NCBI GenBank assembly: GCA_963745025.1
Contig: CAVUWD010000016.1
Location: 864,001-928,000 of the forward strand
Length of the DNA: 64,000 nucleotides
Direction of reading: 5' to 3'
DNA from: an uncultured delta proteobacterium
GTDB lineage: Bacteria; Desulfobacterota; Binatia; JACPRU01
Shown: in pieces, positions 24,760 to 29,773 of the stretch
How the letters are laid out: each line of letters begins with the position of its first letter
How positions within the stretch are numbered: the stretch's first letter is position 1
Notes under the pieces: generated by a model
Told to the model about the DNA's origin: nothing
Databases searched by the model: none
The model's input: only the letters and a program-made list of their open reading frames with translations
Translations under genes and position numbers: made by a program

Positions 24760-26148
24760 TTAGCGGCGACTCCGCGCGGCCGAGCCACCCAGGCCCTGCA
24801 CGTCCGGCGTGCGTGCCAGTGCCAGCTCGTCGGGCCGCGTGAAGACCGCCTCGATCGCCGCGTCGAGTCGCTGCTTTTCCTGCAGCAAAGGCGCGTGGCG
24901 ATATGCCGGCAGCAGCGCGAGCAGGTTGTCGATCATCGCCCGCAAACGGCGCGCGATTTGCAGCGAGTTGGCGCCACAGGCGCGGATCTCGGCGCACGCC
25001 ACCAGCACGAAGTCGTCCCAGTCGGGCGTCCGCTGGACCAGCCGCACGCGGCCGCTGGCATCGACCACTTCGTCCGAGTGCAGGCGCCGCTTGCCCGCCA
25101 CCCGCAGCAGTCGGTGGATCTGGTCGATGGCGAGCACAGCGGTCGTCGGGTCGTTGATCGCCGGCGACAGCGCCTTCAGGGCGATGTCGACCAGGATGCG
25201 GAACGCGAACACCGGGTCCTGCTCCATGGTCCTCTCGTCGCCGAAGGCCACCGCGGCACGCAGCCGGTGGTCGTCGATCGCTGCTGCGCTCGCGTATAGG
25301 CGGAATAGCGGCTCGTCCGGCGTGATGAAGTCGCCGATCTGCGGCACCAGTTCGATCACGCCATCGTGACGCCGCGCCTCCTCGATCAGGGACGCCAGCT
25401 CGACCGCCAACAGGATCTTCGACCGCCCGGTGTGCATGACTTCGCGGGCCGCCGCGGGCAGCTGCACGTGGGTGCGCGTGCGTTCGTCGTGATCGGCACT
25501 CGCGAGGCTCGGATACATCGCTTGCAGCACCTCGATGCCCTGGTTGCCCACGTGCGCCAGGATGCTCACCGGGCGCAGCATGCGAGCCGCGTAGTCGATC
25601 AGGAACAGGAACACCATCAGGCAGGCGACGCCGAGCACGCCGACCAACGTGGTCACCAGGTGCGGTACGGTGGTGCCGAGGCGATTGAGCCCGGCGACCG
25701 CCAGCAGCAGCGTGAAGACGAACAGGCCCACGCTGAAGCGCACCACGTTGTCGCGCAGCAGCGTGGTGGCGATCACACGCGGCGTCAGCTGGCCACCGGC
25801 GATCTGGATGGCCACCAGCAGCGAACCGAAGGTGAAGACGAGGAACGACAGCGCCAGCGTGATGACCGTCTGGTACAGCGCGGCCGCGCCCGACACTCCC
25901 AGCCCGGTCACGTTCCAGTCGAGATAGCTGTCGAGCCAGCGCATGAGCGGCGCCAGCAGGTAGATCAGCACGATCGCCACGATCGGCGTGACCCAGAGCG
26001 CCGAGCGCACGTAGCTGGCGGCCCGGTACATCCGGCCCCAGGTGAGCCGCGCCCTGATGAACTGCGCCACACCGTTGTCCGGCCGCTTCGCCGCCTGCGG
26101 CCGTGGCGTGCCGGACGAAGCTACGGTGGTCTGGCCGTGGGTTGTCAT
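24760..26148 (-). CDS. DUF2254 membrane protein
   Basis: QLTPRV, ERTMEQD..F..R.LVDIALKALSPAINDPTTA signature. Confidence 0.9.
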   Translation of the reverse strand: MTTHGQTTVASSGTPRPQAAKRPDNGVAQFIRARLTWGRMYRAASYVRSALWVTPIVAIVLIYLLAPLMRWLDSYLDWNVTGLGVSGAAALYQTVITLALSFLVFTFGSLLVAIQIAGGQLTPRVIATTLLRDNVVRFSVGLFVFTLLLAVAGLNRLGTTVPHLVTTLVGVLGVACLMVFLFLIDYAARMLRPVSILAHVGNQGIEVLQAMYPSLASADHDERTRTHVQLPAAAREVMHTGRSKILLAVELASLIEEARRHDGVIELVPQIGDFITPDEPLFRLYASAAAIDDHRLRAAVAFGDERTMEQDPVFAFRILVDIALKALSPAINDPTTAVLAIDQIHRLLRVAGKRRLHSDEVVDASGRVRLVQRTPDWDDFVLVACAEIRACGANSLQIARRLRAMIDNLLALLPAYRHAPLLQEKQRLDAAIEAVFTRPDELALARTPDVQGLGGSAARSRR

Positions 26149-26226
26149 GTTTTCGCGAATTGACGTCCACCCCGAAGAGGACGGCAAGTCGAAACTAGAG
26201 TATCGTACCGACCTGTTTGTCAACTC

Positions 26227-27639
26227 CTAAGAAACAACGACAGTAGGGGTTTGTAATTGCACGAGTTGGAAGCCGAGAGAGGCGGCGCGCTTGGAGAGAG
26301 AGCGGACGGTGCGCTCGCGGAATTTGAGTTCGTAGTAATCGATGCCGAGATCTTTGTAGGGTTGGCGGTGCTTCCACATTCGGTAGAAGATGCGCGAGAG
26401 CTTGTGGGCGGTGGCGGTGATGGCCTTGGGGGGCCCGAGTCGGGCGCGCATGCGGCGATGAAAGGCACCCAGAGCGGTGTGGCTGTTGCCGGCAGACTGA
26501 GCGGCTCGGCGTAAGGCAGTGGCCACACGGTTGGAGGCTTTTCGGGTCTTGGAGCTTTTCACTTCTCCTCCGGTGACACGGTTGTCGGGGCACAGCGCAA
26601 GCCAGGAGGCGAAGTGCTTCTCGGAGGGAAACTTCGAGGGATCGAGGCCGACCTCGGAAAGGATGGTCTGCACGGTGAGGGCATCGAACCCCGTGATGGC
26701 GGTGAAGTCGACGCCTGAGATTCGATAGAGGTGGGTGCGCAGGTCGAAGCCAGCCTCGTTGCGCTGGGGCTTGCGGTGGGTGGCCTTGGGTTGTCCCAGG
26801 GGCGTGAGAGCAGGGTCGACTTGGGTGTCGAAGCCGCCCAGGCATTGCTCGATCCGCAGGTCGCAGTCGGCAATCATGCTGCGGTAGGTGTCATAGAGCG
26901 AGAGGCATTGCTCAAGTGCGAAGAGGTGCTCGGGTCGGTAGTCGCCCTGGAGGGATTGGGCGATGCGCTCGGAGGTGCTCTTGATGCGATGATCGCGCAT
27001 CGCGGCCAGAAGCTGTGGATCTCGCTCACCGGCGAGGATGGAGCGAATGATTCTCATGCCGCTGACGCCGGTGATGTCACTGATGACCTTGTGAAGCTGG
27101 ATGTTCATCTGGGTCAGGGCCTTCTGCATGCGCTGCACGTGAGCGGCCGCGTCGCGGATGAGAGTATCGCGCTGGCGGATGTAGCTGCGCAGCACGCAGG
27201 TCTGATCGTCGGGACGAAACGATCCCGAGAGTAGACCAAAGGTGTGCAGCTGCTGGAGCCACTGGCAGTCCTGGATGTCGCTCTTTCTGCCGGGCAGGTT
27301 TTTGACGTGGCGGGCGTTGACGAGCTTGACCTCGAAGCCGCGCGTCTCGAGGATCTGAAAGAGCGGGATCCAGTAGACTCCGGTGGATTCCATGACCACG
27401 GTGTCGACTCCGCACTGCTCGAGCCAGTCAGCCAGACGGTGCAAATCGGCGGTGAAGCACTCGAAGCGGCGCACGGGCTGCGGATCGCGGTCCTCGGGAA
27501 CCGCCACGTAGTGCTCGGCGGATCCGACATCGATGCCGGCGGCGTTGAGGTGCACAGCCTTGAGGCTCGCGGGCAACCCCGTTCCTCGCGCGACGCTCTT
27601 TCTCTTTCGGCCTGCGCCGGGTTTGATAGACTCCTTCAT
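26227..27639 (-). CDS. IS110-family recombinase/transposase (470 aa)
   Basis: DEDD RuvC motifs GIDVG, MESTGVYW, KSDIQD; Tnp domain FPSEKHFASWLALCP...TGG and AITATAHKL. AAGGAGG RBS 8 nt before the ATG at 27639. Confidence 0.97.
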   Translation of the reverse strand: MKESIKPGAGRKRKSVARGTGLPASLKAVHLNAAGIDVGSAEHYVAVPEDRDPQPVRRFECFTADLHRLADWLEQCGVDTVVMESTGVYWIPLFQILETRGFEVKLVNARHVKNLPGRKSDIQDCQWLQQLHTFGLLSGSFRPDDQTCVLRSYIRQRDTLIRDAAAHVQRMQKALTQMNIQLHKVISDITGVSGMRIIRSILAGERDPQLLAAMRDHRIKSTSERIAQSLQGDYRPEHLFALEQCLSLYDTYRSMIADCDLRIEQCLGGFDTQVDPALTPLGQPKATHRKPQRNEAGFDLRTHLYRISGVDFTAITGFDALTVQTILSEVGLDPSKFPSEKHFASWLALCPDNRVTGGEVKSSKTRKASNRVATALRRAAQSAGNSHTALGAFHRRMRARLGPPKAITATAHKLSRIFYRMWKHRQPYKDLGIDYYELKFRERTVRSLSKRAASLGFQLVQLQTPTVVVS

Positions 27640-27843
27640 CGAGTACACCTCCTTGGAGTTGGGATGTGCTCGGGCCGGGTGGGTCGAAGGTGAGAAATCT
27701 CCTAAACGGGATAACCCTCCGTGCGAGGGAGGGCTTCACCAATGAAACAACCGCAAGCCCCCCGGAACCATGCTAACCCACGGGCGCGAAGGCACCATTG
27801 GCGCTACGGTCTTAGCTACCCGAGCACATCCCGGTGTACTCGA
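27639..27843 (-). ncRNA. Predicted bridge/seek-like guide RNA with target-binding and donor-binding loops
   Basis: Closing stems 27639-27649/27833-27843 and 27661-27674/27819-27832 are perfectly complementary. Two ACGGG...CACCA(A/T)T modules are flanked by segments matching the two junctions. Strand inferred from the CDS orientation. Confidence 0.8.
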
Positions 27844-28159
27844 CGCACACCGGCGCAGCAAAGACACTCAGGTTTCTTCCATCAACAACACCGCGCCTCG
27901 CGCGGGGTCAAATGCTAACCCGACGCTGCGGACTGCGTTCGACTACGCGGTCCAGCACGGCCAAACGAGCTCCGGCGCGGAGCGGGTAGTTCCTCGGGTG
28001 ACGGGAACTTGGGCAGAGAGGCTGGCCCAAACCGACATTGTACTTCCCGGCTGCAAGCGCTATTTGGGGTAGCTCAGCCCTGCGACGCGCGCGACCGCGT
28101 GTCGCGAGCTGAGAAGAAAAGGGAACTAGGTTCGTTCCCCACAACCTGCGAGGTGCCGT

Positions 28160-29773
28160 ATGTCAATCCGATCCGACGACGACGCTCCCATCCTCGAACC
28201 AGAGCTGATGTCCGCGGAGACCCCGGCGGGTATCGACCGCCGGAGCTTCATCGTGCGGTCCGCCATGATCGGCTCTGTGGCTGTCCTGTCGGGCAGCAAG
28301 GCTGCGACCGCGAAGGAGACCGCCGACCAGGCCGCTTCCGCACCTCCCGTTCAACCGCGCGTCAAGCTCTCCCCCGACCTCGAGGTCGTGAAGAAGTCCA
28401 AGGGGCCGGTGATGACCACCGTCGAGGAGTTCTACAAGGTGGGCCCCGGACCGTCGAGCTCGCACACCATCGGGCCGATGCGGATCACCTACGACTTCTA
28501 CCAGCGCTGCACGAAGCTGCCGCCGGACCAGCTCGCCAAGGCCACCGCACTCACGCGTCCATCTGTACGGCAGCCTGAGCGCCACCGGCAAAGGACACGG
28601 CACCGAGCGCGCCGCGCTCGCCGGCATCATCGGCAAGGAGCCGGCGACGATCGATCCGCTGTTCCTCGACGAGATGGCCGCCAAGCCCGACCAGACGTTT
28701 CCGGTGACAGCTCGGCAGCGCCACCTTCAACGCCTCGCTCAAGGACATCATCTACGACGCGCCCAAGGGCGACTTCCCGCACCCCAACACGATGACGTGC
28801 AAGCTGATGGCCGGCGAGACCGTGCTGCTCGAGCAGGAGTACTACTCGGTCGGCGGCGGGTTCATCGAGTGGAAGGGCTACCAGCCGCCGAAGAAGGGCC
28901 AGCCGAAATACCCCTACTCCACGATGAAGGAGCTGCAGGAGCACGCCGCGAAGAACAAGCTCACCATCGCCCAGGTCGCGATGGCCAACGAGGTGGCGGT
29001 CTCCGGCAAGACCGAAGCGGAGATCAACGCCTTCCTCGACAAGATCTCGACCGCGATGGTGAACATCGTGAAGTCGGGGCTCGCCGCGCCGCGAATCCAC
29101 GCTCCCCGGGCCGATCAAGCTCAAGACCAAGGCCGGCGACGTCTACAAGCGGGCGCAGGACGACAAGTACGCAGCGCAGCGCGGGGTCGGCGTGGTTTCC
29201 GCCTACGCGCTGGCCGGCTCGGAGGAGAACGCCCGCGGCCACCTGGTTGTCACCGCCCCCACGGGCGGCTCGGCCGGCGTCATGCCGGCCATCGTGTACG
29301 TTCTCGGCGAGGGCGGCCGCAAGCTGCCGCAGGAGAAGATCCGCGAAGGCCTGCTGGCCGCCGCCGTGATCGGCTACCTCTGCAAGCACAACGCGACGCT
29401 CGCCGGCGCCGAGGGCGGCTGCCAGGCGGAGATCGGCGTGGCGTCCGCCATGGGCGCGGCGCTGATCGCCCAGGCGCACGACTTCGACCATCAGGTGATC
29501 GCCAACGCCGCCGAGTCGGCGCTCGAGCACCATCTCGGCATGACCTGCGACCCGGTCGCCGGCTACGTGCAGGTGCCCTGCATCGAGCGCTGCGCCTACG
29601 GCGCAGTCAAGGCGTGGACCGGCTTCATGATCGCCAGCAACGAGATCCCAGCCAATCGCCGCGTCGACTTCGATACGACGGTCGTCGCGATGGCGCTCAC
29701 GGCCAAGGAGATGAACTCGAAGTACAAGGAGACTTCCGAAGGCGGTCTGGCCGTCTCCGTGGTGCTCTGTTAG
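28160..29773 (+). CDS. sdaA: Fe-S L-serine ammonia-lyase with N-terminal Tat-like signal (about 3 frameshifts)
   Basis: VGPGPSSSHTIGPM, LYGSLSATGKGHGT, YYSVGGGF, TAPTGGSAGV, GGCQAE, GMTCDP, PCIER, YKETSEGGLA; N-terminal DRRSFI. Confidence 0.9.

Follow-up and report, generated by a model that had tools for sequence, protein, structure and literature searches.

Bridge recombinases are under development as programmable tools for genome rearrangement and, to our knowledge, nearly all mechanistic knowledge of them comes from IS621-like elements. An IS110-family element in a 64,000-nucleotide stretch of DNA from an uncultured delta proteobacterium (contig CAVUWD010000016.1, positions 864,001 to 928,000; hereafter the window) raises the question of whether its guide RNA reads DNA in another way. 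A sequence-only reading had noticed that both segments of each guide loop are collinear with one strand and lie on one side of a 5-bp repeat, GTCAA, and had proposed a distinct insertion mode with a 5-bp core or duplication. The answer depends on where the element ends and which strand each guide arm would read.

The element proves to be a genuine insertion sequence of the IS110 family and has a two-loop bridge RNA. This part of the sequence-only reading, including the position of the bispecific RNA upstream of the recombinase, is borne out by the protein domains and the covariance-model matches. The recombinase has both the N-terminal DEDD RuvC-like domain and the C-terminal Tnp (Transposase_20) domain (Pfam DEDD_Tnp_IS110 PF01548, 5.9e-22; Transposase_20 PF02371, 5.6e-11), and it scores 276 bits with the NCBIfam model NF033542 for the IS110 family RNA-guided transposase, whose cut-off is 140. 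The start at which an ORF tool placed the gene is a GTG at 27648, giving 473 aa. The protein search returned at least 8000 scored matches in many phyla, and the homologues are 436–504 aa long among the matches listed. The subfamily containing the element, with recombinases of about 460–470 aa, is large and little described.

The element body spans 26226–27914 on the minus strand, flanked on each side by the CT/AG core (Table 1). The empty sites of two relatives read GTCAA-CT-AACC (L009) and CTCAA-CT-AAGC (L010), and therefore the crossover is at the CT of each junction. GTCAA is indeed present at 26219–26223 and again at 27907–27911. The former is host sequence and no duplication. Five copies of the element, the window's included, are present in the same genome, and the other four are preceded by ...CAAC, ...CGGC, ...AACG and ...CCAT; at the opposite end GTCAAATGCTAAC is kept in all of them. 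The ATG at 27912–27914 also belongs to the element, not to the flank. The search for an empty site, which the sequence-only reading had suggested, thus succeeded in two relatives, but the boundary that it gives is CT and not GTCAA, and the core is 2 nt rather than 5 bp.

Most of the element is present in at least 19 public metagenome runs. The contigs of four metagenome runs break exactly at 26224, and also break at 27920. Neither the circle junction nor the empty site was found in these contigs. Two low-support joints in them had sides of only 21 and 27 letters and were disregarded. One metagenome contig yielded an extra left flank of the window's element. In L076, a tandem pair lying head to tail is joined as right end, AG, left end, so that the core occurs once.

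The core is shared by the target, the donor and both RNA loops, and target duplication is absent from the empty sites and the junctions. Among 90 non-redundant loci, the two cores are AG/AG in 85, AA/AA in 4 and mixed in 1. As AG or AA, the core covaries between the two loops, and the final base of the target-loop 5′ arm changes with it. Close relatives are scarce in the data searched: 40 related genomes, many of them incomplete, gave no copies of the element, and the metagenome loci gave only four, L105–L108, at 76–81% identity. In one of the four, L106, the target-loop arms are those of the window's element, but its left junction could not be located (2 mismatches at best).

Table 1. Features of the element in window coordinates; sequences are given in element orientation unless stated otherwise.
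Feature	Position	Strand	Description
Right target flank start	26219..26223	(-)	TTGAC; first GTCAA of the proposed 5-bp repeat; host DNA
Core dinucleotide, right-end junction	26224..26225	(-)	AG (CT on the plus strand); from empty sites and contig breaks
Left donor	26226..26230	(-)	TTAGG, last 5 nt of the right end; overlaps the stop codon
Recombinase gene	26227..27639	(-)	470 aa from the ATG at 27639; Pfam, NCBIfam
Left sub-terminal inverted repeat	26229..26235	(-)	GTTTCTT
Bridge RNA	27645..27839	(-)	about 190 nt; covariance model R1, 131.5 bits
Donor loop 3′ arm	27699..27705	(-)	UUAGG and core AG; same sense as left donor and core
Donor loop 5′ arm	27744..27753	(-)	CGGUUGUUUC; in the window equals right end -13 to -6, 8/8
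Target loop 3′ arm	27771..27779	(-)	GGGUU (left target -5 to -1), AG core, CA handshake
Target loop 5′ arm	27800..27806	(-)	UAGCGCC; putative family-wide right-target guide, antisense
Right sub-terminal inverted repeat	27872..27878	(-)	AAGAAAC; left end +37 to +43
Left-end segment, same sense as donor loop 5′ arm	27879..27890	(-)	UGUUGUUGAUGG; GTTGTT common to both, match at +26 to +31
GC-rich left-end hairpin	27891..27905	(-)	CCGCGC-GAG-GCGCGG; scores terminator-like with the U-rich tail that follows
First 8 nt of left end	27907..27914	(-)	CATTTGAC; contains the second GTCAA; common to all five copies
Core dinucleotide, left-end junction	27915..27916	(-)	CT on the plus strand; from five copies and empty sites
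Left target	27917..27928	(-)	proximal GGGTT 27917–27921, distal CAGCGTC 27922–27928

The predicted bridge RNA is well conserved. The covariance model R1, built from 21 homologues, finds a match in 77 of 80 genome loci and in 76 of 80 metagenome loci, in every case on the strand of the recombinase gene and upstream of it. The two look-alike modules that had been noticed are real and are conserved well outside the window's element. In 79 distinct sequences, three helices of the RNA are 94–99.7% paired and show compensatory changes, and this pairing exceeds all 500 shuffles and all slid controls. The minimum free energy is -83.8 kcal/mol (z = -3.7). An Rfam search matched no bridge-RNA family, its sole match being a chance lncRNA (E = 0.89).

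In the predicted fold, the outer stem pairs 27661–27674 with 27819–27832 and encloses the target loop on the 5′ side and the donor loop on the 3′ side. Both loops share one plan, in which an outer stem is followed by the 5′ arm, an inner hairpin of the form A(A/U)UGGUG...CCCG and the 3′ arm, and on the RNA (minus) strand each module runs from the 5′ arm through A(A/U)UGGUG, the hairpin and CCCGU to the 3′ arm. A sigma-70 promoter scan for the predicted RNA found 0 sites. The left ends of the homologues start with C-N and often have TTGAC at +4, which was not taken as a -35 box because no -10 box goes with it.

The ends carry 7-bp sub-terminal inverted repeats, GTTTCTT/AAGAAAC, one of them 3 nt and the other about 35 nt away from the core. 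Their left-end partner, at +29 to +42, is exact in 74 of the 90 loci and within one mismatch in 85, and the variants change in pairs (GTTAGTC/GACTAAC, GTTCCTT/AAGGAAC). A hairpin at the matching left-end place is common in the family. From left-end position 1 to the inverted repeat, the mean fold energy is -9.2 kcal/mol and the mean z is -1.0.

The guides were examined with 90 non-redundant homologous loci for the statistics and with 156 parsed RNA hits for the exact-match counts. The agreement of the loop segments with the element end and with the target flank, to which the sequence-only reading had pointed, is well above the chance level. In the target loop, the 5 nt of the 3′ arm plus the core have an exact counterpart in 114 of the 156 hits, at 85–135 nt upstream of the loop, and in the window the proximal left target is matched 5/5. 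The handshake bases that follow equal left-end nucleotide 1 in 84 and nucleotide 2 in 78 of the 90 loci (35% expected for nucleotide 2). By these matches, the 3′ arm carries the sense of the left target (5 nt), AG and the first two left-end nucleotides. The 10/10 match of ATGCTAACCC at 27770–27779, to which the sequence-only reading had pointed, is the post-insertion left junction, namely 5 nt of left target, the core and the start of the left end in the handshake manner.

The target-loop 5′ arm behaves otherwise. Taken antisense to core nucleotide 2 and the right target, it scores 3.47/7 versus 2.34 when shuffled (z = 10.2), and none of 2000 shuffles equals this score. The signal stays without the core base (2.57/6 versus 1.51, z = 9.5) and in an alignment-free version (z = 6.6). 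The last base of the arm is complementary to core nucleotide 2 in 81 of the 90 loci, being C with AG in 77 and T with AA in 4. Being antisense to the right target, the arm would therefore pair with the top strand. The matches are partial in the natural sites, covering about half of the first positions.

These results go against two claims, that the guides are confined to one side of the crossover and that both arms of a loop follow one strand as a rule. The 3′ arms contain the core, and that of the target loop runs 2 nt into the element. The target arms would read opposite strands and the 3′ arms hold the core, so the recognition would be dual-strand across a 2-nt core with the IS1111-type arm order. 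We consider it probable that this is an autonomous IS110-family element whose bridge RNA reads both strands, with a 2-nt core and IS1111-type arm order.

By analogy with IS621, the bridge RNA would link a circular donor junction, running from the right end through AG into the left end, to a target made up of left target, AG and right target. The recombinase would then swap strands at the 2-nt core with no duplication. In the target loop, the 5′ arm would lie on the top strand of core nucleotide 2 and the right target, and the 3′ arm on the bottom strand. In the donor loop, the 3′ arm would read the last 5 right-end nucleotides and the core. Both loops carry the same core.

In the alternative that takes up the sequence-only reading, both arms of a loop would pair collinearly with 12–15 contiguous nt on one side of the crossover, the inner hairpin being bulged out as a three-way junction and the right target and right donor remaining unread by the RNA. 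The matches behind it are genuine in the window. ATGCTAACCC and GGCGCTACGG (27800–27809) agree with 27912–27931 at 18/20, and CTCCTAA (27699–27705) and GAAACAAC (27744–27751) together equal 26224–26238 at 15/15. Even so, of the 18/20 match, the CGG end of GGCGCTACGG (27807–27809, 3 nt), adjoining the 5′ arm, is part of a family-invariant GACCG stem, and ATGCT (27770–27774, 5 nt) is core and element. With the core, the two target-loop arms equal the left flank at 13/15, and the 5′ arm matches the distal left target 5/7 in the same sense.

The same-genome copies also lean towards this alternative. Of four occupied sites with enough flank, three carry a collinear distal-left match of at least 5/7, which only 14 of the 817 GTTAG sites in the genome do, placing them within the top 1.7%. 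After the core, by flank count, only 0–2/7 positions fit GCGCTAC at the canonical register in the five copies, so that none of the five right flanks fits the antisense prediction there; two copies reach 5/7 for the right target only at shifted registers. The copies sit in sites matching mainly the left half (GTT-AG). The collinear distal-left matches are not predicted by the canonical model.

Across the family, however, the collinear signal is weak. The same-sense score of the 5′ arm with the distal left target is 2.17 versus 1.86 (z = 2.7) at register 0 and has z = 3.9 at register -1, far below the antisense signal for the right target. It tracks the right-target score (r = 0.24) and the palindromy of the targets around the site (z = 3.4–3.9), and non-palindromic cases such as L079 score 7/7 for the right target and 2/7 for the left target. 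Among 54 loci the window alone reaches 5/7, and the extra metagenome flank of the same element scores 2/7. The relatives with a changed 5′ arm, L105 and L107/L108, have only 1–2/7 in the distal left target by flank count, and their donor-loop 5′ arms do not match their own right ends. Neither of these two links is seen in the close relatives L105–L108. The collinear target match thus stands for three of four same-genome sites and not as a family-wide rule.

The 5-bp core, moreover, is refuted by the same-genome copies and the empty sites. The claim of one-strand targeting with a 5-bp core comes mostly from misplaced element boundaries, and we regard one-strand reading by both loops as very improbable.

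The donor loop agrees with the dual-strand reading on one side and departs from it on the other. In 138 of the 156 RNA hits, the right end holds an exact copy of the 5 nt of its 3′ arm plus the core, and the arm covaries with the last 4 right-end nucleotides at 0.98–1.0 versus 0.42–0.59 expected. The AG after the left-donor match is present in both RNA loops family-wide. The arm has the same sense as the left donor and the core, and therefore would pair with the bottom strand.

The donor-loop 5′ arm, on the contrary, does not follow the right-end position that it matches in the window, as the same-sense test gives z = -1.8 in the 90 loci and 0.0 in a second test. Such covariation had been named as a check by the sequence-only reading and was not found. 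On the dual-strand reading, the 15/15 match combines the donor-loop 3′ arm with 8 nt matched by the 5′ arm, and this second part belongs to the window's element alone.

As a canonical right-donor guide, the 5′ arm would be antisense to the first part of the left end, and this candidate was dropped with no signal at any register (z about -0.4). An antisense search anywhere in the element gave no preferred place. The donor-loop bases after the core were also tried as a right-target handshake and were near chance, at 27/90 and 35/90. Right-donor recognition in the subfamily thus appears, from the sequence comparisons, to depart from the published rule.

What the arm does resemble is the left end in the same sense. 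The signal at +10 to +50 has z = 5.9, and exact matches of at least 6 nt occur in 13 of 40 loci, where shuffling gives a mean of 2.6 and the antisense control 1 of 40. In 12 of the 13 matching loci the match is at +20 to +35, a few nucleotides ahead of the right inverted repeat. The arm and the left-end segment change together within one clade (TCGCTG, TCACTGGC, GATCACTG). The likeness is partial, and in clades like L042/L053 it extends over only about 4 nt.

Another alternative is a mixed mode, in which palindromic or single-stranded substrates would be preferred. The target-loop 5′ arm would then pair with either the right target or the distal left target's bottom strand, and the donor loop would read two bottom-strand segments, one being the right end with the core and the other the left-end segment before the right repeat. 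The donor would be folded by the sub-terminal inverted repeats; the inner hairpin of the RNA, the inverted-repeat stem and two RNA-DNA helices could form a four-way junction.

This alternative would accommodate the weak palindromy of the family targets, the left half of such a palindrome at the same-genome sites, and the inverted repeats, which flank both donor segments and covary. Single-strand circles and top-strand-only transfer are also reported for other IS110 elements by Xie 2026 and Sun 2025. Its evidence is sequence correlation throughout, however, and the likeness between the arm and the left end, partial as it is, could reflect instead an RNA-level function of the transcribed leader or a terminator-like element. 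We judge this mixed reading unlikely.

Its narrower form, a single-strand reading of the donor with both donor-loop arms on the bottom strand, and optionally of the target, would seem rather improbable from the same correlations. If true, it would mean a single-stranded or cruciform substrate and a recognition geometry unlike that of the IS621 structures.

The dual-strand reading places the element near IS621 in most respects. In IS621, the guides are on opposite strands around a 2-nt core with the bottom-strand guide 5′, according to Durrant 2024 (PMC11208160), and handshake guides are described in Hiraizumi 2024 (PMC11208158). Both systems have a recombinase of DEDD and Tnp domains, a left end that holds a non-coding RNA upstream of the recombinase gene, and internal target and donor loops. 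In both, the 2-nt core is inside the guides, target duplication is absent, the two halves of the target are read from opposite strands, and the handshake bases match the non-cognate partner after the exchange.

The differences from IS621 are several. The IS621 recombinase has 326–328 aa versus 470 aa here, and its structures are only a distant, barely alignable match (E = 2e-4). The arm order is reversed, as the window's 3′ arm is the same-sense left guide with core and handshake and its 5′ arm is antisense. The core here is AG, rarely AA, in element orientation. The window's family has the 7-bp sub-terminal inverted repeats, and the canonical right-donor guide is not found in it.

SeekRNA elements of the IS1111 type share other traits. 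Siddiquee 2024 (PMC11187229) describes an arm order that differs between IS1111-type and IS110-type seekRNAs and a GL-P----S(t)G motif. As in the IS1111-family seekRNAs (e.g. ISEc11) described there, the RNA has its top-strand match on the 5′ side of the bottom-strand one. Sub-terminal inverted repeats are common to both (7–17 bp in IS1111, 7 bp here). So is the recombinase motif, here in the form (G/A)L-P----TG, with ALCPDNRVTGG in the window's recombinase and GLCPxNRITGG as the consensus of the family.

By contrast, the RNA and a long non-coding region are downstream in IS1111, whereas the RNA here is upstream in every covariance-model locus; the same source notes a few exceptions whose non-coding regions are upstream. 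The recombinase is also longer here, 470 aa against the 330–350 aa given there for the IS1111 type. ISEc21, an IS110-type seekRNA element, is similar in that its guide RNA comes from an upstream non-coding region, both target strands are matched and no duplication is made, but its top-strand match is 3′ of the bottom-strand match, opposite to the order here, according to that source.

Two preprints touch on the target sites. Half-match or off-target insertion is reported for IS621 (Xie 2026), and the same-genome copies here resemble it in matching mainly the GTT-AG half-site. Target stem-loop recognition is reported for ISPpu10, an IS621-like element (Na 2026), and the weakly palindromic targets of the window's family, seen by sequence alone, resemble that. 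This subfamily may already be among the 86 covariance models of a survey preprint (10.64898/2026.10.21.760802).

In summary, the main outcome is a correction, as the 5-bp core and the one-sided, one-strand guides fail once the boundaries are fixed. The departure in right-donor recognition and the collinear left-flank matches in the window's genome make a concrete, testable question. The element belongs to a very large subfamily and is itself well defined, with clear boundaries, five copies and two empty sites. This subfamily unites traits of IS110 and IS1111, with the RNA upstream, what would be the IS1111-type arm order, the sub-terminal inverted repeats and the 2-nt handshake.

We bounded the element by its copies and by sites without it (left, right, top, bottom and arm names follow its minus-strand orientation). 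The host genome (5.65 Mb, 20 contigs, 65.9% G+C) carries four full copies, one of them 98% identical, an internally deleted one and a fragment at a contig end. All share the low end CTCCTAAG..., preceded by unrelated bases (...TCAA, ...CAAC, ...CGGC, ...AACG, ...CCAT), and the high end ...GGGGTCAAATGCTAAC, beyond which they diverge. Two related genomes have an empty site, reading ...TGTTTGTCAA-CT-AACCGGCGC... in L009 and ...TTTGTGCTCAA-CT-AAGCAGACGG... in L010, and the occupied site in the window reads ...GTCAA-CT-[CCTAAG...AAATG]-CT-AACCCGACG.... Filled and empty sites together show that the element inserted, without duplication, at a CT (AG in element orientation). In four metagenome runs, contigs stop at 26224 and 27920, the pattern a repeat should give.

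The sequence-only reading had located all its strings correctly and had taken GTCAA as a 5-bp repeat or core. This repeat dissolves on comparison: one GTCAA starts the right target, the other is left-end +4 to +8, and the flanks of the four other copies lack it.

The homologous locus L076 holds a head-to-tail pair of copies, whose joint is right end, AG and left end with a single core. They occupy L076:1030-2820, 1611 nt apart, and the joint is identical to the one expected in a circular intermediate. Three other homologous loci (L053, L064, L058) have two RNA matches each, from two copies 1.9–2.3 kb apart. The deleted host copy (L005/L007, G000:C8:103156-104488) aligns to window 26221-27333 and 27698-27919 and lacks about 364 bp, covering the recombinase gene start and the 3′ part of the RNA. 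The metagenome contigs L107 and L108 share the same 7 nt left of the element and differ in their right flanks; either the left end is longer in that relative or the copies come from half-site recombination.

Features of the element, in window coordinates
Feature	Position	Strand	Basis or remark
Core dinucleotides	26224-25 and 27915-16		Empty sites and copy comparison
Element body	26226-27914	minus	Between the cores
Recombinase ORF	26227-27648	minus	Single long ORF of the region
Bridge RNA	27839-27645	minus	
Predicted terminator-like hairpin	27891-27905, tail to 27881	minus	GC-rich, then UGUUGUUGAU; points into the element

The bridge RNA holds two modules of one design within a 14-bp outer stem and folds at −83.8 kcal/mol (z = −3.7). 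A covariance model built from 21 homologues finds it upstream of the recombinase gene in 77 of the 80 loci from named genomes, across many phyla, and matches in 76/80 metagenome loci; an Rfam search gave no model for it. Pairing across 79 distinct sequences reaches 99.7% in the target-loop outer stem, 99.2% in the target-loop inner hairpin and 94.1% in the donor-loop inner hairpin, with numerous two-sided changes. None of the 500 column shuffles or the slid controls scores as well as this structure. In the outer stems of the RNA, where the alignment is poorer, pairing is 56–65%.

Four arms were parsed in 156 RNA matches and their junctions then sought; many of the missing junctions reflect loci truncated at contig ends, and both were present at 90 loci whose guides are distinct. 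The target-loop 3′ arm (5 nt plus core) has an exact copy 85–135 nt upstream of the loop in 114/156, and the donor-loop 3′ arm (5 nt plus core), canonical as CTCCTAA in the window, has one at the recombinase gene end in 138/156, with GTTTC before it. The cores of the two loops are AG/AG in 85 of the 90 loci, AA/AA in 4 and mixed in 1. The two target-loop 3′-arm bases after the core equal left-end nt 1 and 2 in 84/90 and 78/90, the chance level of this handshake being 35% for the variable base.

In RNA sense, ATGCTAACCC consists of GGGUU from the left target, the AG core, the handshake CA matching the left end and the U that starts the conserved stem. Its 10/10 match, read earlier as a guide to flanking target DNA, is real but is therefore the post-insertion left junction, as predicted by the handshake principle described in Hiraizumi 2024 (PMC11208158).

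Core nt 2 and the right target are matched in antisense by the target-loop 5′ arm, at 3.47 of 7 positions over the 90 loci versus 2.34 in shuffled pairings (z = 10.2; 0/2000 shuffles as high), or 2.57 of 6 versus 1.51 without the core base (z = 9.5). This arm ends in C in 77 loci with an AG core and in T in 4/4 with AA. Its same-sense match to the distal left target is weak at these loci (2.17 versus 1.86, z = 2.7; z = 3.9 one register off). A slight palindromy of the targets (distal left target against reverse complement of right target, z = 3.4–3.9) explains this weak signal, and the left-match score climbs with the right-match score (r = 0.24). In the window, GGCGCTACGG joins 3 nt of the invariant GACCG stem to the 7-nt target-loop 5′ arm; the arm matches the distal left flank at 5/7.

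Of 817 GTTAG sites in the host genome, 14 have at least 5/7 of the 5′-arm sequence in the same sense at −12 to −6, and 3 of these 14 are occupied; occupied sites with a flank total 4. A fifth flank, on a metagenome contig, matches 2/7, and the host right flanks fit the antisense prediction poorly. Possible readings of the left-flank matches are half-site insertion, with hairpin-like targets entered at their left halves, and genuine collinear pairing; as a general rule, the latter is disfavoured by the covariation in relatives. Two occupied sites and the metagenome-contig site fall in one repeat family, so a dispersed repeat seems to be a favoured target. The repeat is GC-rich, with related copies (...GGTTGGAGCGGCCC... 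/ ...GCGTTGGAACGGCCCC...); the sites are the left flanks of the host copies L002 and L003 and a loose contig end at window 27920 in the metagenome run X3. In four cyanobacterial loci (L024, L026, L027, L032), elements whose 5-nt left guides differ all follow one shared ...CCAGGTGCAAG sequence, which points to a conserved host repeat as the target, its additional conserved context reaching past the bases that the RNA matches.

The donor-loop 5′ arm is unrelated to right end −13 to −6 (2.54 versus 2.70, z = −1.8; 90 loci). In the window this arm is GAAACAAC, whose 8/8 match to the right end is found only in this element among 40 distinct arms tested and is missing in its closest relatives. Part of the match follows from the constant right-end GTTTC, the GTTGTT of the arm and the Val-Val-Ser C-terminus of the recombinase; the GTTGTT comes from the arm's likeness to a left-end segment with the same bases. 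The headline novelty of the sequence-only reading, a 5-bp core with guides confined to one strand and one side of the crossover, is mostly an effect of where the boundaries were placed.

The left-end segment, lying after the GC-rich hairpin and before the right inverted repeat, resembles the donor-loop 5′ arm in the same sense (alignment-free z = 5.9). Exact matches of at least 6 nt occur in 13/40 loci versus a shuffled mean of 2.6 (maximum 7, 300 shuffles) and in 1/40 in the antisense control; 12 of the 13 lie at left end +20 to +35, and at least 8 lineages are represented. Given the same sense, the arm would therefore pair with the bottom strand, which the donor-loop 3′ arm also reads. A 7-bp sub-terminal inverted repeat, at right end −10 to −4 and left end about +35, is exact in 74/90 loci and its variants co-change. 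A donor folded by these repeats would bring both segments to the donor loop. The left-end hairpin and arm-like segment of the window score as an intrinsic terminator, which could shield the element from read-through, reported to drive excision in IS621 (PMC13626964).

The recombinase has 470 aa from an ATG at 27639, preceded by an AAGGAGG box. It carries DEDD_Tnp_IS110 and Transposase_20, the Pfam pair typical of IS110-family recombinases, passes the NCBI model 'IS110 family RNA-guided transposase' and bears only a distant similarity to the IS621 recombinase of known structure (E = 2e-4). Its motif, as in the subfamily, is (A/G)LCPxNRxTGG. The element is intergenic (flanking stretches at window 26100-26223 and 27929-28160), between two ORFs pointing apart: a 487-aa membrane-protein-like ORF on the minus strand, its upstream region ending at 26223, and a plus-strand ORF with its start at 28160.

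The arm order is the reverse of that described for IS621 in Durrant 2024 (PMC11208160). In Siddiquee 2024 (PMC11187229), IS1111-type seekRNAs have the top-strand match 5′, and the group has sub-terminal inverted repeats and a GL-P----S(t)G motif. The subfamily is alike in its arm order, 7-bp repeat and (A/G)LCPxNRxTGG motif, whereas its RNA lies upstream of the gene and its recombinase exceeds the IS1111-type size range in that account by about 120 aa. We class the element as an IS110-family bridge system of mixed character, outside the IS1111 group. Its RNA architecture may be among the 86 models with which a 2026 preprint (10.64898/2026.10.21.760802) surveyed 32,190 bridge RNAs.

In summary, this bridge-RNA element is genuine and well bounded, and it belongs to a large subfamily that is under-described. 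The reversed arm order, the inverted repeats and the odd right-donor relation make this subfamily a variant deserving specialist attention.
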